DNA of 54,497 nt from an uncultured Gammaproteobacteria bacterium. GTDB taxonomy: Bacteria > Patescibacteriota > Microgenomatia > Woykebacterales > RBG-16-39-9b. The stretch lies in assembly GCA_964360785.1 (NCBI GenBank), contig CAYHXX010000005.1, forward strand, positions 1 to 54,497. Reading direction: 5' to 3'. The number at the start of each line of letters is the position of its first letter. Positions within the stretch are counted from its first letter, which is position 1. Below the pieces are notes generated by a model, which was given only the letters and a program-made list of their open reading frames with translations, was not told the origin of the DNA and did no database searches. Positions 8,890 to 35,449 of this stretch are shown piece after piece. The translations under genes were made by a program, and so were the position numbers.

Positions 8890-8954
8890 CACAAAATAAT
8901 AGCATAAACATTGCTTATCACAGAAAATATATCGTAATTGGCAACCCATAGGAA

Positions 8955-8983
8955 TTGACTTTTAGCTTCAAATATGTTATAGT
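8955..8983 (+). promoter_or_regulatory. Sigma70-type promoter of GC island A
   Basis: TTGACT (8955-8960), 17-nt spacer, TATAGT (8978-8983). It is preceded by ATAGGAATTGAC, the motif that also opens the cassettes at 23449 and 25334. Confidence 0.55.
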
Positions 8984-9034
8984 TGCACCCTTAGTCAGCA
9001 CTCGCTGGCTTTTTTGTTCGAAGGGAGAACAAAC

Positions 9035-9760
9035 GTGAGGTCATTGGTCAGTTCATACCTGGCCACCCCGCTAGTGATCATCACCATGATGCTCTTAGCG
9101 ACGGTGGGATCAAAGGCAGCCCCAGCTTATGGCTGGGAACTGTCAGCCGACTGTGTTGACGCCGACACGATCGTGGGAACAACCACGGTGCCGAATCCTC
9201 CCCAGACCTTCGAGGTCTTCGCCGAGGATCACGTTCCGGGTCACGGGTGGCAAGAAGTCGATGGCTCAAGGCACGAGTACACGTCCTACAAGGGACAAAT
9301 GGAATTTGTGCTCGATGTCAGCGGGACAAGGGATGGTGCCGATCTCTACATCGTCGGTCTCTCGACCGGTGAAAAGACAGACCCACCATTCCCGACCTGT
9401 CCTGAGGCGACTCCGACGGCGACATCAACGCCGACTCCAAATCCGACGGCAACGAACACGCCGGTGTCGCCAACGGCGACGAAGACTTCGGTACCCAACA
9501 AGCCGACGCGGACACCGACGCAGGTGGTTCCGACGGCAACGAGTACCAGGGTCATCGCGACCACCTCGACACAGCAGGTACCAACGTCAACGAAGACGTC
9601 GGTCATCCAGCTGCCGAGGACGGGTACTGGTGGTGACGAACCTAGTTACGGTAGGGGCAAAACGATCTTCGCGATCTCTACCTCAGGGTTTGTTGCCATG
9701 ATCGTGGTATATGTGTCTGGAGTGCTGGTCTACCTCCAGATGAAACATCCCCACGAGTAA
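9035..9760 (+). CDS. LPXTG-anchored surface protein, GC-rich (foreign composition)
   Basis: GTG 9035 lies 7 nt after AAGGGAG. Signal-like N-terminus LATPLVIITMMLLATVGSKAAPA, a ~100-aa domain and a Pro/Thr-rich linker. The C-terminus is LPRTG, then a hydrophobic segment, then a short tail, i.e. a sortase sorting signal. Long alternative-frame ORFs are typical of high-GC coding DNA. Confidence 0.7.
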   Translation: MRSLVSSYLATPLVIITMMLLATVGSKAAPAYGWELSADCVDADTIVGTTTVPNPPQTFEVFAEDHVPGHGWQEVDGSRHEYTSYKGQMEFVLDVSGTRDGADLYIVGLSTGEKTDPPFPTCPEATPTATSTPTPNPTATNTPVSPTATKTSVPNKPTRTPTQVVPTATSTRVIATTSTQQVPTSTKTSVIQLPRTGTGGDEPSYGRGKTIFAISTSGFVAMIVVYVSGVLVYLQMKHPHE

Positions 9761-9778
9761 CTTCAAGACCGCTTTTTT

Positions 9779-9830
9779 GGCCGCCAGAACTGGGTTCTAA
9801 CCCCAACTGGCGGCCACCTTCTTAATTTTT
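9779..9830 (+). terminator. Intrinsic terminator of island A
   Basis: GGCCGCCAG..GGGTTCTAACCC..CTGGCGGCC hairpin (9779-9815) followed by ACCTTCTTAATTTTT. Confidence 0.6.
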
Positions 9831-12506: not shown

Positions 12507-12582
12507 GGGTCCGTAGCTCAGCGGTTAGAGCACCACTCTTATAAAGTGGGGGTCGATGGTTCGAATCCATCTGGACCCACCA
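12507..12582 (+). tRNA. tRNA-Ile (anticodon TAT), CCA encoded
   Basis: Hand-folded cloverleaf. Acceptor GGGTCCG/TGGACCC, D arm GCTC-AGCGGTTA-GAGC, anticodon stem CCACT/AGTGG with loop CTTATAA, T arm GATGG-TTCGAAT-CCATC, discriminator A plus CCA. Confidence 0.85.
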
Positions 12583-13830: not shown

Positions 13831-14703
13831 TTATAGTTCTTCCAACTTTACTGGTTCATCCAAACTGTTTTGAATGAGGTTTAGATATTTTTCTGTGGTA
13901 GCAAGTCGCTTGTGTCCAGCAAGTTTGCTGACCAAGACGAGAGAAGTTCCTGACATTAAGTGATGGGCAACAAAGGTGTGTCGAAGATCGTTTACCTTAG
14001 CATCCTTTATCCCAGCGAGACGGAAGTAGCGATCGATTGCAGTACGGATATTACGTACGAGTAGGGGACGCCCGGTCTTGGTGATGAATAATGTTTCTTC
14101 CTTTGCGCTTGGACGAGCCTCCAAGTAGCGCTTTAGAGCAGTCTCAGAAGCTTTGTTGAGTGGAACATTTCGATCTGGATAGCTTTCGCCAGCTGGAACA
14201 TGTAATTCTCCGCTTTTGCCGTTTTCGCCAAACTTAACATCGGAAAGCTTAAGTTTGGCCAACTCGCCAATACGAATTCCAGTTTGGAGGAGAAGTTCGA
14301 CAATTGCAGATATTCTAATGTCGTCTCTGGCTGCATCACGCAGTGCCCGATACTCCATCTTAGAAAGAATTCTTGGAGGTTTCATATCAAACTTGGGATG
14401 TTCGAGTAGGGAAGCTGGGTCGTCAGTGATAAATTCGTTTATTTTTAGAAATCTGAAGAAAGTTTTTGTAGAGTTTGTTTTTCGAGAGATGCTTTTAGGG
14501 GTGTAGCCCTCTTTAACAAGTTTGGCCATAAAAGCTTGGAGGTCGGCTGTTGCAATCTCATGGACTTGATGCTTCTTAAGGTTTTCTAGGAAAGCGGCTA
14601 GTTGTTCGATATCTTTTCCGTACGCCAAGACAGTCGCGCTACTGCGACCTTGAGACTTAAGATGATCAACAAATTTTGAGTGGGCTTCCTGTACTTTTAT
14701 CAT
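13831..14703 (-). CDS. Tyrosine site-specific recombinase (XerC/XerD-like)
   Basis: 290 aa. N-terminal SAM-like core-binding domain, then catalytic-domain motifs TGIRIGEL, DLRHTFVAHHL and LAGHKRLATTEKY (R..H-x-x-R..Y pattern). Confidence 0.85.
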   Translation of the reverse strand: MIKVQEAHSKFVDHLKSQGRSSATVLAYGKDIEQLAAFLENLKKHQVHEIATADLQAFMAKLVKEGYTPKSISRKTNSTKTFFRFLKINEFITDDPASLLEHPKFDMKPPRILSKMEYRALRDAARDDIRISAIVELLLQTGIRIGELAKLKLSDVKFGENGKSGELHVPAGESYPDRNVPLNKASETALKRYLEARPSAKEETLFITKTGRPLLVRNIRTAIDRYFRLAGIKDAKVNDLRHTFVAHHLMSGTSLVLVSKLAGHKRLATTEKYLNLIQNSLDEPVKLEEL

Positions 14704-15919: not shown

Positions 15920-15994
15920 CGCGGGTGGGGGGTATAGAATCCCGAGAGGCTCATAATCTCTCTTAAGCCGGTGCGAATCCGGCACCCGCTACCA
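15920..15994 (+). tRNA. tRNA with CAT anticodon (Met; initiator versus elongator or Ile2 unresolved), CCA encoded
   Basis: Hand fold: anticodon stem AGAGG/TCTCT with loop CTCATAA, T arm GCCGG-TGCGAAT-CCGGC, 3' ACCCGCT-A-CCA. In this fold position 1 (C) is unpaired with 72 (T). The exact 5' end is uncertain by 1 nt. Confidence 0.7.
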
Positions 15995-17621: not shown

Positions 17622-17650
17622 TTGACAAAATTTAATTAATTAGATATAGT
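17622..17650 (+). promoter_or_regulatory. Sigma70-type promoter upstream of GC island B
   Basis: TTGACA (17622-17627), 17-nt spacer, TATAGT (17645-17650). A 12-nt perfect palindrome CCAACTAGTTGG lies at 17695-17706. A second weaker candidate is TTTAAG-N17-TATAAA at about 17719-17747. Confidence 0.5.
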
Positions 17651-17774
17651 CGAGTCAATGATTCTTAACTTGAACCATTATTGGCACCGAAACACCAACT
17701 AGTTGGCGGTTTTGTCGTGTCTTGGTTTAAGTTCATTTTTCCCTACCATATAAAACAACAAAGTCATAACAAAG

Positions 17775-18157
17775 CTCGCTGACCGGGGCGTTGCTTTGCG
17801 ACGGGAATTTCCCGTTAGTACGCGAAGAAAGGAGCCGTGATGGAAAAGTCCTGGAACTACTCGCACGGCTAAACCGACGTAGCTAGGTGGTGGGTGAAGT
17901 TCAGCCGGTAGGATTTCACCCACCAGCCCAAAAGGAGATGACAATGTGTGACTGTATTGGTCCACGTTTTGATCCGTAGGTAACAGGGATGCTAGCTCCC
18001 TTACAGCCTAAATCTATAGGGAAGGAGGGGTCACATGAGCCACGTTTACGACGCGCGCTACGACAGCTACAGCTGGGACTAAGCTGACGGCTGGGTGAGG
18101 TTTCGTACGGGCGACTTGCATTCCAAGCGAGGTTCGCTTGTCGCCCGTACGGACCTC
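17775..18157 (+). ncRNA. GC-rich structured transcript of unknown class (island B), with embedded mini-ORFs
   Basis: No ORF of 60 aa or more on the + strand. Stable hairpins: ACGGGAATTTCCCGT; AGCCGTG..CACGGCT; GGTGGGTGAA..TTCACCCACC (10 bp); GTAACAGGGA..TCCCTTAC. The terminal hairpin is GAGGTTTCGTACGGGCGAC..GTCGCCCGTACGGACCTC (18097-18157). It lies between its own promoter and the separate trpS promoter (TTGTAG-N17-TATACT). Confidence 0.4.
18035..18082 (+). CDS. Candidate 15-codon mini-ORF (MSHVYDARYDSYSWD) inside island B
   Basis: ATG lies 5 nt after GGAAGGAGGGG. 13 of 15 sense codons end in G/C, like the other island ORFs. The stop lies 15 nt before the terminal hairpin. A second mini-ORF, MEKSWNYSHG (17840-17872), also follows AAAGGAG. 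Confidence 0.3.
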   Translation: MSHVYDARYDSYSWD

Positions 18158-21300: not shown

Positions 21301-23442
21301 ATGAGTAAATTAGTTCTAGTCGACGGTCATGCCCTCTTTCACAGAGCATTCCATGCTATGCCGCCATTAACCACCTCAAAAGGTGAGTTAGTTAACGCTG
21401 TTTTTGGTTTCACCAGCATGCTTTTGCGAGTACTAGCTGATATCAAACCAGAATACGCCATCGTCGCTTTCGATACCAAGGCTCCGACTTTTCGCCATAC
21501 AGAGTACACTGCCTACAAAGCCCATCGCATCGCCGCTCCAGAGGAAATGCATCAACAACTGCCTCGAATCAAAGAGGTTGTGAACAGTCTCAACATTCCT
21601 ATTTTCACTCTCGAAGGCTACGAGGCTGATGACGTCATTGGCACATTAGCTTCGCAAGCAGTTGATCTCGAGGTGGATATTGTCACAGGCGATCGCGACG
21701 CTCTGCAACTAGTTAATACTCATATCAAAACCTACATGCCTGGGAAGAGTCTCAGCGACATTATTATTTATGATGGAAAAAAGTTCGAGGAAAAGTATGG
21801 GTTTAAACCCAAACAACTGATCGACTACAAAGCGTTGGTTGGCGATCCCAGTGACAATATTCCCGGAGTGATGGGGATTGGGGAAGTATCAGCGACAAAA
21901 TTGATTCAGGAATATGGTAGTGTCGAGGAAATTTACAAAAACTTAGACAAAATTCCAGAAAAAGTGAGTAAAAAGCTGGCCGAAGGGGCAGAAAGCGCGG
22001 CCATGAGCAAGCGACTGGCGACGATTGATACCCAAGCACCGATCCAACTTGATCTAAATAAGTGTGTCTTATCTGATTATGATCACCAAAAAGCGATAAG
22101 TCTTTTTGAAGAACTTGAATTCAAAAGCTTGATACCTAGGTTGCCCGGTGTAAAGCTAACGACCAAAAAACAAATCGTTTCTGAAGATCAGGGAGAACTG
22201 TTTGGTAGCAACGAACAAATTGAACCTGTTAAACAGGAAACCACTGATCTCGATAAAGTTCTGCGGGAAATGGAAGATTACGGAGCCTTGGTTGACAAAG
22301 ATTATTTAGAGAAACTTGCTAGCGAGATCAATTCTGAGATTGAACAACTCGAAAAGGAAATTTATAAAAGCGTTGGCCATGAGTTCAACCTCAATTCACC
22401 GAAACAACTTTCAGGTGTACTTTTTGGAGAACTAGGTTTAACCCCTTTCAAGAAGGGAAAGGAACACGCTAGTACCGGGGAAGAAACTTTAACTGAGTTA
22501 CTTGGGGTCCATCCAGTGATTGAGTTGCTTCTCAAATACCGCGAACTTTTCAAACTCAAGTCTACCTATGTTGACGCCCTGCCACCACTTTTGGATAAAA
22601 ATAATCGAGTGCACACCAGCTATCATACCGATGCCACCAAAACTGGAAGACTATCTTCAACCAACCCCAATTTACAAAACATTCCGGTAAAAGGAGAATG
22701 GGGAGTAAAAGTCAGAGATGCGTTTATCGCACCAGAAGGTTCAAAACTTATTTCTGCAGATTACAATCAGATTGAACTGCGAGTAATGGCGCATCTCTCG
22801 CAGGATAAAAATTTAGTCGAAATATTTAAAAAAGGTGAGGACATTCACACCCGCACCGCGGCCGAAATACTTGATAAGAAACCAGAAGACATCACCAAAG
22901 ACGATCGTCGGATCGCCAAAATGGTCAATTTCGGTATCATGTATGGTATTTCTCCCTTTGGGCTTTCACGGCAACTAAAGATTGATCGGGATACGGCTAA
23001 ACAAATCATCGATAAATATTTTGAAGAATTCTCTGGAGTCAAAATTTGGTTGGAAAAAACTTTGTCCGATGCTTATGCCAAAGGTTACGTTGAAACTCTT
23101 GGTGGGTTTCGTCGTTATTTGATTGAGCTTAAGCAAGGTAACTATCGTGTTCGGGCGGCCGGGGAACGCCAAGCGATCAATGCTCCGGTACAAGGAACAG
23201 CTGCGGATATCATCAAGGCGGCAATGATCCGGATCAGTAAGCAGCTAGCAGAGAGCAGTAAGCAGACAAAGATGATACTGCAAGTCCATGATGAACTGGT
23301 TTTTGAAGTACCAGATGCCGAGGTCGAGAAGGTCAAACCAATAATCAAAGATCTGATGGAAAATACCTTCAAACTCTCCGTCCCAGTAGAAGTCGAGATA
23401 AAGATAGGGCAGAACTGGGGACAAATGAAAACCCTCCGCTAA
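21301..23442 (+). CDS. polA: DNA polymerase I (5' nuclease plus polymerase domains; no 3'-5' exonuclease domain)
   Basis: 713 aa. The 5'-nuclease motifs (LVDGHALFHRAFHA, GYEADDVIG, GDRDALQL) are followed after a ~35-aa linker by polymerase motifs (NLNSPKQL, RVHTSYH..TGRLSS, DYNQIELRV, QVHDEL). Confidence 0.92.
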   Translation: MSKLVLVDGHALFHRAFHAMPPLTTSKGELVNAVFGFTSMLLRVLADIKPEYAIVAFDTKAPTFRHTEYTAYKAHRIAAPEEMHQQLPRIKEVVNSLNIPIFTLEGYEADDVIGTLASQAVDLEVDIVTGDRDALQLVNTHIKTYMPGKSLSDIIIYDGKKFEEKYGFKPKQLIDYKALVGDPSDNIPGVMGIGEVSATKLIQEYGSVEEIYKNLDKIPEKVSKKLAEGAESAAMSKRLATIDTQAPIQLDLNKCVLSDYDHQKAISLFEELEFKSLIPRLPGVKLTTKKQIVSEDQGELFGSNEQIEPVKQETTDLDKVLREMEDYGALVDKDYLEKLASEINSEIEQLEKEIYKSVGHEFNLNSPKQLSGVLFGELGLTPFKKGKEHASTGEETLTELLGVHPVIELLLKYRELFKLKSTYVDALPPLLDKNNRVHTSYHTDATKTGRLSSTNPNLQNIPVKGEWGVKVRDAFIAPEGSKLISADYNQIELRVMAHLSQDKNLVEIFKKGEDIHTRTAAEILDKKPEDITKDDRRIAKMVNFGIMYGISPFGLSRQLKIDRDTAKQIIDKYFEEFSGVKIWLEKTLSDAYAKGYVETLGGFRRYLIELKQGNYRVRAAGERQAINAPVQGTAADIIKAAMIRISKQLAESSKQTKMILQVHDELVFEVPDAEVEKVKPIIKDLMENTFKLSVPVEVEIKIGQNWGQMKTLR

Positions 23443-23566
23443 ATTTTTATAGGAATTGACAATTTGAACGGAGCGAAAATTGCGAAGCGCGTATTAACGA
23501 TTCAAGATTAACTATTTTCACAGTGAAAACTTGACCAAAGAAAACGCTTAAGAGGACCTATAGCGC

Positions 23567-23594
23567 TTGACTTTCAACCTATTTTTGATATAGT
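23567..23594 (+). promoter_or_regulatory. Promoter of cassette C, first unit
   Basis: TTGACT (23567-23572), 16-nt spacer, TGaTATAGT extended -10 (23586-23594). The block is homologous to 25444-25472. Confidence 0.55.
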
Positions 23595-23655
23595 TATCCC
23601 CAACAAAGTACTTCGGACTCTGTTCGAGGACTTATTTGCACACAGGGAGGATCGA

Positions 23656-23856
23656 ATGAGCGCTGTTAAGCGGCCGCCGCTGCCCAACATCGACCCCCAG
23701 TTCGGGGCTGTTCAGTGCGCCTGCTGCGAGGGTTTCTTCCTCGAAGAAGCAACTAGGCTCGACAGGTACGTGAACGCCAAGTACCGCTGTGAGTTCTGCC
23801 GCCCCTCTGGACACGATGGGTCGCTCTGCAAACTCATTGCGGCCGATAGAGCATGA
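23656..23856 (+). CDS. Small Cys-rich protein (66 aa), GC-rich, unknown function
   Basis: ATG lies 5 nt after AGGGAGG. The Cys pattern is C-x-CC ... C-x2-C ... C (possible zinc-ribbon-like; inference). It is bracketed by a promoter and a terminator in the same orientation. Confidence 0.55.
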   Translation: MSAVKRPPLPNIDPQFGAVQCACCEGFFLEEATRLDRYVNAKYRCEFCRPSGHDGSLCKLIAADRA

Positions 23857-23879
23857 CCTTGTTGAGCAACGTGTGCAAA

Positions 23880-23940
23880 GGGACAGGTCTGGAATGTTTC
23901 TCCGGAAACATATTCGGATCTGTCCCATTTGTGTTTTTCT
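23880..23940 (+). terminator. Intrinsic terminator after the Cys-rich ORF
   Basis: GGGACAG..(ATGTTTC-TCCG-GAAACAT)..CTGTCCC hairpin (23880-23926) followed by ATTTGTGTTTTTCTTTT. Confidence 0.65.
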
Positions 23941-23998
23941 TTTCAACAAAAAAGACCTACATTGCAACGCAATGCGAGACGCAAAGAGTCTTATAGTA

Positions 23999-24027
23999 TT
24001 GACAAATCTAACTCAGTAGTGTATACT
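23999..24027 (+). promoter_or_regulatory. Promoter of cassette C, second unit
   Basis: TTGACA (23999-24004), 17-nt spacer, TATACT (24022-24027). Confidence 0.55.
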
Positions 24028-24092
24028 AACCGATATAGTTCTGATCGAATGCTTTTTAAGACAACAAACCTTGTTGTTTTTAGGGGTGGATT

Positions 24093-24410
24093 CGATCGTT
24101 AGTAGACCCAGATCGGACCCAACCAGCGGTTGAGACGAGGTTCTCAGCTGAGATCGTGAGGTGTATATGCAAACACCTGTCTACACCGGAGTACTCCAGG
24201 TACTCGTCGGGTGAGAAAGCGATCATGGAACCATGGGCGCAGGGAAGCGAGTGACGTTCAGTGGTGAGGTTCTCAGCGGAAGCTGTTAAACTTTACCCCG
24301 CACCGTCACCACCCGAGGTCATAGACCGCCCAACCCTCGGGGAGTAAGTTAGTAGACTACCAAGTCGAACACCCTCCCCGAGTCTCCACAAGCTAAGGTT
24401 TAATAAAAAC
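24093..24410 (+). ncRNA. GC-rich ORF-free transcript of unknown class (cassette C payload 2)
   Basis: About 320 nt with no ORF of 60 aa or more in any frame, between a consensus promoter and a hairpin/T-run terminator. Helices: AGGTGT..ACACCT, CCGAGG..CCTCGG, CTCGGGGAG..CTCCCCGAG (9 bp). Internal direct repeats: GTTAGTAGAC (24098, 24348) and GAGGTTCTCAGC (24137, 24266). Confidence 0.45.
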
Positions 24411-24424
24411 GTTAATTTATGAAG

Positions 24425-24462
24425 GGAAGCGACTTTCGCAAGAAGGTCGTTTTTCTTTTTCT
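24425..24462. terminator. Terminator block shared by cassette C (+) and the convergent CAP gene (-)
   Basis: AAGCGAC..GTCGTTT hairpin followed by TTTTTCTTTTTCT. The block is homologous to 26054-26088. Confidence 0.5.
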
Positions 24463-24465
24463 AAA

Positions 24466-25335
24466 CTATCTCAAAAATTTGTTATTTCTGTAGAGTTGAA
24501 GAGTGATGAAGCCAAATATAGCCAAATTTAATAAAACAATTGTCGTTGCTGCAATTCCTTGAACTAAAGTTATATCTGCTTTCTTTTCTTCTTTCGGTTC
24601 TATTCTTTTTGTACTGATTGTAGCTGATTTGGTTGCAGGTTGAGGTTTGGTGTTGGGTGTTGCTTCAATAGTCGTCACAGGTGTTTCCACAACAGGAGCT
24701 GGTTGTACAGCCACGGCAGGTGTAGATTTTTTGGGTGTAGCTGGGGCTGGTGCCGAGGGTGTTGGTGGTGTAGTTGCTTGCCCACATTGATTGGTCATTG
24801 TTGAAGCTGTGCCGTTGGCAAAATCTGTCACCCAATACCATTTACCGTTGTAACTAGCTCGGCCAATACCTATTCGGGTGTAAATAGAATTGAGCATATT
24901 GGTATTGTGCCCAGACGAGTTTTTCCAAGCGTCAAACGCAAAGCTTGCACCAGAGCCTTGTGTCGTATAGAAAATATTTTCTGCTCGTGAACCACTGATT
25001 CCAAAATCGGTTAGTCTTTGTGACATACCTCGACCGAGAGAATCAACGTGATCACTCGGGAAATAATTTTTGGCACCCATGTCAGCGGCAAACCAACAAG
25101 CAGCGTTGGTTAAACTTTGATCCTCAACTAGTGTTCCAGCCCCATTTTGCTGTCGATAAGAATTGATCAAACTCAAAAAACCAGTCGTGTCAGCAGCAAC
25201 CGGCTTGGCAAAAGGTCCTAAAAATATGGCAGTTAGGGAGCAGGCAGCAAAGAGGTGAAAAGAAGTAAAAAATCGCTGCACAATAAACAGTATCCAATAA
25301 ACGAAAAAGTTAGTCAAACTAAAAAAAGACCTCAT
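24466..25335 (-). CDS. Secreted/membrane-anchored CAP (SCP/PR-1-like) domain protein
   Basis: ATG 25335 (MRSFFSL). CAP motifs LINSYRQQNGAG, AENIFY and SSGHNTNML. A Pro/Thr/Ala-rich linker and a C-terminal TM helix follow. Composition is host-like and AT-rich. Confidence 0.7.
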   Translation of the reverse strand: MRSFFSLTNFFVYWILFIVQRFFTSFHLFAACSLTAIFLGPFAKPVAADTTGFLSLINSYRQQNGAGTLVEDQSLTNAACWFAADMGAKNYFPSDHVDSLGRGMSQRLTDFGISGSRAENIFYTTQGSGASFAFDAWKNSSGHNTNMLNSIYTRIGIGRASYNGKWYWVTDFANGTASTMTNQCGQATTPPTPSAPAPATPKKSTPAVAVQPAPVVETPVTTIEATPNTKPQPATKSATISTKRIEPKEEKKADITLVQGIAATTIVLLNLAIFGFITLQLYRNNKFLR

Positions 25336-25443
25336 AGGAATTGACAATTGTCTTCAATTGCGAAATGCGTCGTTAATTTCTGTTTTACTTTTATAGCTTG
25401 AGGACTTACATAAGGATCAAACAGGTTATTTAACCCATAGCAT

Positions 25444-25472
25444 TTGACTTTTCAACCTAATTATGTTAATCT
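25444..25472 (+). promoter_or_regulatory. Promoter of cassette D
   Basis: TTGACT (25444-25449), 17-nt spacer, TGtTAATCT extended -10 (25464-25472). The block is homologous to 23567-23594. Confidence 0.5.
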
Positions 25473-25584
25473 ACTCGGAATTCCTACCTCATTCCGAGGC
25501 GCGACACCGTCAAGTGTTGCGAAACTTCTCAAGCCTGGCCCAACGCCAGACAACTTGAGTGGTTAAGGGAAACAGGAGGTCCAC

Positions 25585-25923
25585 GTGGACTTCACCACCG
25601 CTCTCGCCGCTCAGCTCATCTCTGTGCGCAACCTCAAGTATGAGGATGCAGCAGAGGCGTACGCGGTGGGTACCGGGAAGGTAGGGAACGCTGTCACCGT
25701 GGCGGTTCAGCACATGACCCCAGCTGAGCTGGGAATCATTGCCGCCGCACGCCAGCCCTCCCGCCCACCACGCTACGGGGAAACCAGTGTCGCGGTTCGG
25801 TCGCCTATGCGCCTGAACTCCGACGCATCTGGGCTCAATATCCTGTTGGACTTGGCTGAAGCAGCCTTGACCGACCGGATCATTGACCTCGTGGGCCTGA
25901 AGGAACCCATCGCTGTGTCGTAA
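25585..25923 (+). CDS. Hypothetical 112-aa protein, GC-rich, unknown function
   Basis: GTG lies 6 nt after AGGAGG. About 70 percent G/C at third codon positions by hand count. It has a ~110-nt structured leader and a ~100-nt 3' UTR closed by AGTGGTGAGGGATCG..CGATCACCCCTCACT. Confidence 0.55.
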   Translation: MDFTTALAAQLISVRNLKYEDAAEAYAVGTGKVGNAVTVAVQHMTPAELGIIAAARQPSRPPRYGETSVAVRSPMRLNSDASGLNILLDLAEAALTDRIIDLVGLKEPIAVS

Positions 25924-26129
25924 GACGCAAGTGGTGAGGGATCGCTGACTCTGACAAAGTCACCGATTGGTTCCGTCGACATTTTGGTTCTCACGAACTA
26001 GAATGCTCGATCACCCCTCACTCAAGTTAATCTTTATTAGGTTAATTTAAGAGGAAAAGCGACCTGAAAGGGCCGTTTTTCTTTTTCTGCCTTGAAATCA
26101 GATATTTCCTGCAGTATTATGGAGCAACT

Positions 26130-26306
26130 ATGAGTAAAATTTCACTTTTGGATAGAATTGAAAAGATTGAAAGAGAAGTAGCCGAGGTTAAGAAAACCTT
26201 GAGCTATGAAGAAAAAGATGCCTTAAAGGCAGTTCGGGCTTATGAAAAAGCCAAGCGTGAAGGAAAATTAATTGAGCTTAAATCTGTTTCCCAACTTTTG
26301 GACTAG
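26130..26306 (+). CDS. Putative antitoxin (58 aa, below the ORF-track cutoff)
   Basis: ATG 26130, MSKISLLDRIEKIEREVAEVKK..., a coiled-coil-like small protein. Its TAG stop overlaps the GTG start of the RelE-like ORF by 1 nt. Confidence 0.5.
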   Translation: MSKISLLDRIEKIEREVAEVKKTLSYEEKDALKAVRAYEKAKREGKLIELKSVSQLLD

Positions 26307-26569
26307 TGGTTAAACATCTTTTTTACTACGTAACTTTTAAACGGGCCTTCAAAAAACTACAACCTTTTCAGAGAGCTGACTTCGAGAAGAAGCTAACCAT
26401 ATTTGTAAATAATCCTTTTGATTCCAGACTTAAAACTCATAAACTACAAGGAAAGTTAGATAGATACCACTCATTCTCGATTAACCATAGCGATAGAGTT
26501 GTGTTTGAGTTTATAGGTAACGAGACGGTTGGTTTAGTCGATATTGGTTCTCACAGTATTTACCGTTGA
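26306..26569 (+). CDS. RelE/ParE-superfamily toxin (YafQ/RelE-like)
   Basis: 87 aa. KLQGKLDRYHSFSINHSDRVVFEFIGNETVGLVDIGSHSIY fits the RelE/ParE core pattern. Confidence 0.65.
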   Translation: MVKHLFYYVTFKRAFKKLQPFQRADFEKKLTIFVNNPFDSRLKTHKLQGKLDRYHSFSINHSDRVVFEFIGNETVGLVDIGSHSIYR

Positions 26570-34563: not shown

Positions 34564-35268
34564 CTAGAGCGTGTACTTCCGGCAGGAGTTGTGACCATAC
34601 ACGAGCCGGAAGGCCGGGCTGTCGGTGTCGAGCGTCGGTAACCACCCGCCGAGCTTGTACTCGAAGGTCGCCTGGAACACAGTCGTGCCTTTGTAAGGGA
34701 AACCATTGATTGTGCTCCAGATCTCGGGACCGGTGATCTTCTCGCTCTTCGTTGACCACCCGAGCCCAGCGTCGGTGTCGATGATGGGGGTGTAGGGCGG
34801 CCACAAAAGATTTCCGTAGTAGCTGTTGGTCCGGTAGGACTGCCAGCCCTTGAGCCTCCAATTGTTGCCCAGAAGCGTATTGAGCTCCTGTTTGCCGTAG
34901 CAGGTCCAACCGATCGTCGTCGATGTCGCCATCGCGCTAAGTTCAGCTGTTGCAGGAGCATTGCCGCACGCTTCGGAGATAAGGACGACCTCGTCCACCA
35001 GTTCGCCGTCTTCGACCTTCTCCTTGACCTTGCCGTCGGTGGGGTCGAGGAAGTGCCTCTTCACCTTGACGGCCTTCTTTTCTTTGTCAGCAGGGTGATC
35101 GCAGGTTGCGAGCACCTCGCCGTCGAAGTCAGCCGGCCTCACCTTTTCCTGCTTAGGCGGCTGCTTCGTGCCATCGGCCTGGGTGAACGACGTTCCTTGG
35201 ACGGTAATACCGATCGCAATGGCGAGCACTGCGAGCACGGTAGCGAAGATGATCGAGCGGAACCTCAT
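34564..35268 (-). CDS. Secreted or membrane-anchored Trp-rich protein (234 aa), GC-rich, unknown function
   Basis: ATG 35268 lies 5 nt after AAGGAGGG. Signal-like N-terminus MRFRSIIFATVLAVLAIAIGITVQG. Two long alternative-frame ORFs overlap it, as expected for high-GC coding DNA. Confidence 0.6.
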   Translation of the reverse strand: MRFRSIIFATVLAVLAIAIGITVQGTSFTQADGTKQPPKQEKVRPADFDGEVLATCDHPADKEKKAVKVKRHFLDPTDGKVKEKVEDGELVDEVVLISEACGNAPATAELSAMATSTTIGWTCYGKQELNTLLGNNWRLKGWQSYRTNSYYGNLLWPPYTPIIDTDAGLGWSTKSEKITGPEIWSTINGFPYKGTTVFQATFEYKLGGWLPTLDTDSPAFRLVYGHNSCRKYTL

Positions 35269-35449
35269 AGGTCCCTCCTTGTGTTTACACACCGTATCCT
35301 AAACGGTGGCTTCTTGCTTTGCCCTCGGTTTGCACTTGTTTTACCTTCCTTCCCGAAGCCCAAAGCAACGATCAATAGGCAAACACCTTTCTTATAGAAC
35401 TATTGCGGAGCGAAAGCCCCTAACCCTCGAGTTGGGTTTGTAGCAAAGA

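Follow-up and report, generated by a model that had tools for sequence, protein, structure and literature searches.

The 54,497-nt stretch analysed here (the window; contig CAYHXX010000005.1 of assembly GCA_964360785.1, from an uncultured bacterium placed by GTDB in the Woykebacterales of the Patescibacteriota) contains, between polA and a gene for a CAP-domain protein, a GC-rich island without an evident gene. Our leading, though tentative, reading is that this island specifies an independently transcribed, non-coding structured RNA carried as accessory cargo of a hypervariable chromosomal slot, possibly together with a 66-aa protein. Computed here are promoter and terminator signals, the lack of a coding signal, a predicted strand-biased fold, the status of the island as cargo, and a relative whose visible differences are compatible with the structure; from these we infer transcription, the fold in vivo, and any partner or function of the RNA unit.

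The unit begins with a sigma-70-type promoter on the plus strand (TTGACA-17-TATACT, 23999-24027), which matches the consensus at 11 of 12 positions, is the top promoter-like site within 23400-26300 (2.9 kb), and is distinct from the promoter of the slot described below. Transcription would start near 24034-24036. At the other end, a 17-bp hairpin (24421-24437/24442-24458; dG -21.3) leads into TTTTTCTTTTTCT; a simple terminator scan overlooked this hairpin because the T-run lies partly within its stem. GC content in the island is 54-57% (~300 nt at 55%) compared to a window mean of ~41%. A preliminary description of this DNA had proposed a promoter-to-terminator unit, and the near-consensus promoter and terminator hairpin support an autonomous unit of this kind; the promoter, AT-rich mini-hairpin, absence of open reading frames (ORFs), helices, repeats, and terminator that it listed were all found where it had placed them.

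We conclude that the island is non-coding because it contains no substantial ORF, shows no 3-base periodicity, and carries a 2-nt indel in its relative. Stops interrupt every frame of both strands in a six-frame translation, and no frame of the island contains an ORF of at least 60 aa, as the preliminary description had claimed; the longest ORFs that overlap it encode 57 aa (23929..24102, plus strand) and 48 aa (24080..24226, minus strand). Over 24083-24400, period-3 power was 1.7 times the spectral mean and GC content was flat across the three phases (0.57/0.55/0.55), and none of the 120-nt sub-windows of the island exceeded 1.8 times the mean. By the same measures, the ORF-bearing GC-rich islands of the window (23656-23856, 25585-25923, 9014-9760, and 34564-35292) had period-3 power of 3.1-29 times the mean and third-position GC contents (GC3) of 0.66-0.78. 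In the relative, a variant from sequencing run X11 described below, the 2-nt deletion at 24164 would shift the frame of both ORFs that span this position.

Folding of the whole unit gave a minimum free energy of -156 kcal/mol, with z-scores of -5.7 for the plus strand and -3.1 for the minus strand. We refolded the core alone because the whole-unit z-score is inflated by the terminator and by AT-rich flanks mixed into the shuffles; the core alone had a z-score of -3.1 (plus) compared to -1.8 (minus). The predicted fold contains 16 G.U pairs among 141, a further feature that favours the plus strand. AGGTGT/ACACCT, CTCGGGGAG/CTCCCCGAG, and the other stable helices noted previously are all present within a strand-biased predicted fold, most of them with pair probabilities of 0.85-1.0 (Table 1). 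In the predicted domain 2, a GGAA tetraloop of the GNRA type (24278-24281) caps the longer of two arms, which has three tiers (24251-24309); the other arm is short (24219-24240). The AT-rich mini-hairpin ACAACAA-ACC-TTGTTGT with its T-run (24061-24081) forms the tip (24058-24080) of the long 5′ stem, P1. The preliminary description had suggested that this hairpin might act as an attenuator of read-through into the GC-rich part; this idea is weakly disfavoured, as the hairpin taken alone is weak (-6.9 kcal/mol), belongs to a longer stem, and has a shortened U-run in the relative (24081 T>A).

Searches of public sequencing runs with island 31-mers identified 11 runs, 10 of which carry the identical strain; the runs that hold the window are groundwater metagenomes. 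The sole relative found is the variant in X11, another groundwater metagenome, where it is represented by two read-sized contigs of 151 nt. The first contig covers 24042-24193 and differs by 9 substitutions and a 2-nt deletion, of which three changes are listed individually and the others must fall within ~40 nt of the contig ends. Of the listed changes, 24081 T>A affects an unpaired bulge position, 24149 T>C converts the G24128.U24149 pair of helix 24127-35/24142-50 to a G-C pair, and hairpin 24159-64/24173-78 has a smaller loop as a result of the deletion at 24164. When refolded, the variant adopted the same predicted structure with an energy of -30.6 compared to -28.3 kcal/mol (2.3 more stable), and all three visible changes are structure-compatible by this model. 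Judging from where the unlisted differences can fall, core positions 24082-24193 are probably ~97-98% identical in X11, with only one difference expected over 24082-24152, and the AT-rich leader has probably diverged by ~16%. Identity to the window in X11 is only 82-94% for most pieces of the flanking housekeeping genes. Thus, with its core at ~98% and flanks at 82-94%, the relative suggests that the core is either constrained or was recently transferred. The second X11 contig shares only 24043-24098, the 5′ stem; both of its flanks differ, and it has its own TATAAT upstream, 9 nt before the homology begins. Homology that starts at 24043 behind a TATAAT element has its boundary where the transcript is predicted to begin, and the 5′ stem thus behaves as a separable module. 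A contig from another run, X4, matches the window without a difference from 23819 to 24373, after which 29 letters of unrelated sequence follow (ATTTTAGGTTTTAGAGACAGAGCCGGCCG). The break at 24373 could mark a structural variant within the 9-bp hairpin, or it could be an artefact of assembly or adapters.

To place the island in its genomic context, we compared it with 22 sister loci of 5-22 kb each, obtained via PolA; the PolA relatives carry the labels Saccharimonadales, Patescibacteria, or Woykebacteria. In the window, a trpS-type synthetase gene, ftsH, and polA precede the island, and the CAP-domain gene (24466..25347, minus strand), a GC-rich cassette that we call D, a toxin–antitoxin pair, and two fpg genes follow it. 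Between polA and the CAP-domain gene, the content of the slot differs among the sister loci: L072 and L076 (PolA 92% and 88% identical, respectively) carry a gene for a 341-aa protein with a helix-turn-helix (HTH)/sigma-70 region 4, L078 a 96-aa orphan, L082 a 126-aa membrane orphan, and L001 other genes; L075 and L002 have nothing there, L077 apparently nothing, and L004 other cargo or nothing, with no island. At least 10 sister genomes, in which polA is 80-92% identical, keep the promoter or the terminator at the edges of the slot. Sequences homologous to the AT-rich promoter block after polA (A block) occur at 25334-25470 and in the promoters that follow polA in sister genomes, and in L072 and L078 the promoter itself (ACCCATAG..TTGACTTT) can be recognised as the same. 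The terminator block (T block), which faces the 3′ end of the convergent CAP-domain gene, has homologues at 26041-26088, at L001:15816-15868, and in the terminators next to the CAP-domain gene in L072, L076, and L082, and L078 has a visibly similar one; the terminator motif (CGAC..GTCGTTTTTCTTT) is recognisable in all four of these last loci. As sister loci retain the slot signals and lack the island, the island and the neighbouring 66-aa Cys-rich ORF are lineage-specific accessory contents of a hypervariable slot with conserved native expression signals. No homologue of the 66-aa protein was found, and its AlphaFold2 (AF2) model was of low confidence (pLDDT 49). A compound hairpin downstream of this ORF is the predicted terminator that would separate it from the RNA unit. 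The possibility that the island is a remnant of the 341-aa HTH gene of sister slots was ruled out by tblastn.

Table 1. Coordinates of features predicted or identified in and around the island. Positions are those of the window.
Feature	Position	Strand	Description
Slot promoter block (A block)	23449..23595	+	AT-rich, directly after polA; repeat families D1, D5, D7, D9
66-aa Cys-rich orphan ORF	23656..23856	+	AGGGAGG Shine-Dalgarno; GC3 periodicity; co-cargo of the island
Compound hairpin and U-rich tail	23875..23945	+	Fold of 23857-23950, -42.3 kcal/mol
5′ stem P1	24042..24098	+	~25 bp in three stacked segments; dG -22.4; pair probabilities 0.69-0.89
Direct repeat A (GTTAGTAGAC)	24098..24107 and 24348-24357	+	Exact copies
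Domain 1	24102..24184	+	Predicted closing helix GUAGAC/GUCUAC; arms 24127-24135/24142-24150 and 24159-24164/24173-24178
Direct repeat B (GAGGTTCTCAGC)	24137..24151 and 24266-24280	+	Exact core; 14/15 over 15 nt (family D8)
Hairpin GAGUACU-CCA-GGUACUC	24189..24205	+	Pair probability 0.96
Domain 2	24207..24316	+	Predicted closing helix UCGGGUG/CACCCGA; pair probabilities 0.84-0.99
Small hairpin	24317-24327	+	Predicted fold; pair probabilities 0.95-1.00 (24317..24382)
9-bp GC-rich hairpin CUCGGGGAG/CUCCCCGAG	24336-24382	+	29-nt loop; pair probabilities 0.95-1.00
Slot terminator block (T block)	24389..24462	+	AT-rich spacer, 17-bp hairpin 24421-24458, T-run

Cassette D provides an indication of what such cargo can contain. 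We aligned 25330-26095 with L002 and L001 (window 25334-26088; L002:3945-4668; L001:15270-15870). Between the window and L002, the leader is conserved as far as the start codon, and all three species share the last ~6 codons (..EPI[AT]xS*) and ~110 nt of 3′ untranslated region at 89% identity. The bodies of the ORFs (112, 100, and 143 aa) are unrelated. RNAalifold predicted 36 pairs in the 3′ element, with one compensatory change, and its z-score was -4.4 on the plus strand compared to -1.7 on the minus strand. This conserved, folding element shows that structured RNAs do travel in these cassettes, which, by analogy only, raises the prior for the island as a structured RNA. Homology between the island core and the cassette D 3′ element was also considered and rejected, as an alignment score of 42.5 compared to 32 ± 5 for shuffled sequences was not significant.

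Several results weigh against a structured RNA gene. When the island was compared with the 22 sister loci by blastn and nhmmer, the terminator block gave the only match, and the island was not next to polA in any sister locus with a readable slot. Blastn searches in 'distant' mode against phage and plasmid collections and exact-pattern scans of viral contigs gave no match; pattern scans of JGI metagenomes gave none and then 51 loci, all of them unrelated tandem repeats or CRISPR arrays; and our sequencing-run searches found no RNA-seq run that contains the island. We estimate that one compatible substitution, a bulge change, and a loop indel would arise together by chance in roughly 10% of cases in X11, and the high identity of the core, combined with another upstream sequence, could be the outcome of a recent transfer instead of constraint, with several relatives coexisting in X11. 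A z-score of -4.0 was also obtained, on both strands, for the neighbouring GC-rich cargo that encodes 112 aa, and thermodynamics alone therefore does not distinguish RNA genes from GC-rich cargo in this genome. Lastly, the direct repeats of the island are not explained by its fold: forcing the first copies to be unpaired cost 12 kcal/mol without recruiting the second copies. The preliminary description's proposal of a structured RNA that belongs to no known class thus stands in part. An autonomous, non-coding unit with a well-defined predicted fold and no known family was recovered, but the unit is not found in at least 10 sister slots. That it is cargo of a hypervariable slot, with signals common to sister genomes, had escaped the preliminary description.

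The main rival explanation is that the island is cargo without function, either a decayed GC-rich orphan gene or a randomly captured fragment, which may be transcribed owing to its position between a promoter-like site and the resident terminator and has no role. We regard this as somewhat unlikely, and far from negligible. It would fit the restriction of the island to a single lineage and its absence from all sister slots, the rapid turnover of slot contents (five states were seen), and the strong folding of GC-rich cargo even when that cargo is coding. The other cargo of these slots consists of orphan protein genes, and an ORF-less unit could be a dead one; only a single stop occurs among the 106 codons of minus-strand frame 0, and the order GC3>GC1>GC2 is faintly visible over 24083-24262, although codon periodicity was not significant in any 120-nt sub-window. 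This explanation is, however, harder to reconcile with the unit having its own near-consensus promoter and with the X11 relative having an independent TATAAT at the same distance. The X11 core is also better conserved than its leader and most flanking genes, its visible changes are structure-compatible, and the direct repeats are not random. These repeats suggest a different possibility, that the island acts at the level of DNA. The preliminary description had noted two direct repeats in mirrored order, and exact copies are indeed present at 24098/24348 and 24137/24266; compared to 5000 dinucleotide shuffles of the core, the probability of a longest repeat of at least 12 nt was 0.003 and that of two families of at least 10 nt was 0.0008. 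Nested in the order A..B..B..A, the copies could be insertion or recombination scars or sites that drive exchange of slot cargo, a proposal consistent with the highly non-random character of these 10-nt and 12-15-nt repeats, with the replacement of cargo between conserved flanks, and with the X11 contig that has the 5′ hairpin module alone in another context. The repeats lie inside the cargo, however, away from the junctions between cargo and flanks (~23595 and ~24389), no recombinase is adjacent, with the only tyrosine recombinase of the window 9 kb away at 13831..14703, and neither repeat motif nor its complement recurs above chance elsewhere in the window, leaving a DNA-level element improbable. 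Bistable folding through the duplicated motifs was rejected because the alternative was 12 kcal/mol worse and left the second copies unused. The motifs (GAGGUUCUCAGC and GUUAGUAGAC) could be paired protein recognition sites or traces of the origin of the sequence. Clustering of GATC in the island was uninformative, as GATC is over-represented throughout the window.

The remaining alternatives are minor. The unit could be an mRNA for micro-peptides such as MQTPVYTGVLQVLVG (ATG at 24167, with GAGG 5 nt upstream) or MEPWAQGSE (24226), as the GAGG-5 nt-ATG arrangement at 24158-24169 might suggest; it would then resemble the window unit at 17622-18157, whose three mini-ORFs have strong Shine-Dalgarno sites. 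We consider this quite improbable. The Shine-Dalgarno sequence is far weaker than the AAGGAGG-type sites of nearby real genes, it and the start codon lie in or adjoin the AGGUGU/ACACCU hairpin (pair probability 0.97), the X11 deletion shortens the spacing between them from 5 to 3 nt, and the island lacks 3-base periodicity. The least probable of these explanations, and hardly credible, is that the models overlook a divergent representative of a known class in this deep-branching lineage, be it tmRNA, RNase P RNA, 6S RNA, signal recognition particle (SRP) RNA, a riboswitch, an attenuator leader, or part of a group I/II intron. RNAs of the candidate phyla radiation (CPR) are often divergent, and the GGGGUGGAUUCGA start of the core loosely resembles a tmRNA 5′ end. 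Nevertheless, a search of 23850-24600 (751 nt) with 4227 Rfam models at E<=10 gave six chance-level matches and none in the core, where tmRNA, RNase P RNA, 6S, SRP, riboswitch, self-cleaving ribozyme, and group I-II intron models all lacked a match at this threshold; the preliminary description, which could not assign the unit to tmRNA, RNase P, SRP, 6S, or a riboswitch, thus agrees with the cmscan results. Cmscan of the whole window at gathering thresholds identified only two tRNAs and the 5′ end of a 16S rRNA, and ARAGORN found three tRNAs and no tmRNA in the window, permuted forms included. The likeness of GGGGUGGAUUCGA to a tmRNA start proved superficial, as the unit has no T-arm, acceptor 3′ strand, or tag frame: no T-loop motif was present in 24083-24400, and six-frame translation of the island gave no Ala-rich tag frame with a hydrophobic tail. 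By inspection, the P4 motif of RNase P RNA is absent. A cis-regulatory leader or attenuator was rejected because the unit ends at the 17-bp terminator and the next gene, encoding the CAP-domain protein, is convergent on the minus strand, leaving no downstream gene in the same orientation to regulate. A housekeeping RNA would also be expected in sister genomes, whereas their slots lack the island.

Taken as a structured RNA gene, the unit would span 24035-24462 and give a transcript of ~390-430 nt, made separately from its own sigma-70-type promoter. The long 5′ stem (24042-24098) would be followed by a GC-rich core (24102-24382) of two multi-helix domains and three hairpins, and the transcript would end at a bidirectional terminator common to the slot and the convergent CAP-domain gene. 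Such an RNA would not be a housekeeping RNA but exchangeable cargo, accompanied by the gene for the 66-aa protein, in a slot whose native promoter and terminator are kept by sister genomes. The folded RNA would act in trans, and it may partner the 66-aa protein in a lineage-specific accessory or conflict module. Predicted pairing in trans with the mRNAs of the 66-aa protein or cassette D was no better than for shuffled sequence. A more specific proposal, which we offer as a long shot, is that the island and the ORF form a two-part module (cassette C), consisting of an orphan zinc-ribbon-like 66-aa protein and a ~400-nt structured RNA with two duplicated recognition motifs, which moves between lineages into chromosomal 'landing pads' with conserved promoters and terminators. 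If so, the ~98% identity of the X11 core would reflect strong constraint on, or recent mobility of, an RNA-centred conflict element, itself part of a system of cargo exchange that would be confined to this CPR clade.

To our knowledge, almost no non-housekeeping RNAs have been characterised in the CPR, and the island, if real, would represent a new class of large structured RNA from this radiation. The comparison of loci also indicates a pattern in the clade, in which intergenic slots at fixed positions retain native AT-rich expression signals, promoter and terminator alike, and exchange the GC-rich orphan cargo between these signals from one close relative to the next. Whether such cargo serves defence, host interaction, or selfish persistence bears on how ultra-small symbionts with minimal genomes gain and test functions. 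Even if the island is junk, it records the rate of slot turnover.

Other features of the window were noted as well. A third copy of the slot-promoter motif (ATAGGAATTGAC) occurs within 8948-9800, upstream of a gene of 57-61% GC. The 248-aa protein that it encodes has no Pfam match; its N-terminus resembles a signal peptide, and it has a Thr/Pro-rich linker and a membrane anchor at the C-terminus. The GC-rich promoter-to-terminator unit at 17622-18157 lies directly upstream of a Trp/Tyr-type tRNA synthetase gene, and its mini-ORFs with strong Shine-Dalgarno sites encode MEKSWNYSHG, MCDCIGPRFDP, and MSHVYDARYDSYSWD. The ParE/RelE-like toxin–antitoxin pair (58 aa and 87 aa) between cassette D and fpg is found in the window (26130-26569) and in L082 (5372-5804) and is absent from L072, L076, and L078, a further presence/absence polymorphism. 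PolA (21301-23442; 713 aa) has 5′-nuclease and polymerase domains and no Pfam 3′-5′ exonuclease domain, and all close relatives have a PolA that is similarly compact (690-725 aa). The tRNAs found by ARAGORN are a tRNA-Ile with anticodon TAT (UAU) at 12507-12582 and two tRNA-Met(CAT) at 15920 and 16128; a tRNA-Ile with a UAU anticodon is uncommon in bacteria.

Among known systems, tmRNA shares with the island a similar size (~350 nt), a stand-alone gene with promoter and terminator, and a GGGG start after a processed leader. In contrast to tmRNA, the unit has no tRNA-like domain or tag ORF and is not conserved in sister genomes. Phage morons, which are autonomous promoter-gene-terminator units between conserved genes, are similar in being self-contained, of atypical composition, and present in one genome but missing at the same position in close relatives. 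The features of a moron-like autonomous cassette are all found here, namely a promoter and terminator, a GC content of 55% compared to 41%, and presence/absence polymorphism at a fixed position. Unlike morons, however, the island is chromosomal in a CPR bacterium, its cargo is apparently RNA, and the slot's own promoter and terminator are kept. The vrRNA of the VIPR system consists of tandem 5-nt GGY/NN repeats beside a Vipr (RAMP-like) gene (bioRxiv 10.64898/2026.04.26.720920). This system was rejected as a match, as no run of at least three GGYNN units occurs on either strand of 24030-24470, none of at least four occurs anywhere in the window, and no neighbour is RAMP-like. Also comparable are the orphan structured non-coding RNA candidates obtained by the GC-rich intergenic region (GC-IGR)/DIMPL strategy from long GC-rich intergenic regions of AT-rich bacteria (PMC8723152, PMC6429828, PMC11109978). 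The island resembles these candidates: it is GC-rich and free of ORFs in an AT-rich genome, carries a promoter and a terminator, is predicted to fold stably, and matches no catalogued family. Those candidates were defined by conservation and covariation over many genomes, whereas the island has a single near-identical relative and is missing from sister genomes. Integron cassettes, finally, resemble the slot in combining variable cargo at a fixed chromosomal position with recurring flanking blocks. The slot, however, has neither an integron integrase nor an attC-like imperfect palindrome at the cargo boundary; its cassettes bring their own promoters and terminators, and its recurring blocks are expression signals.

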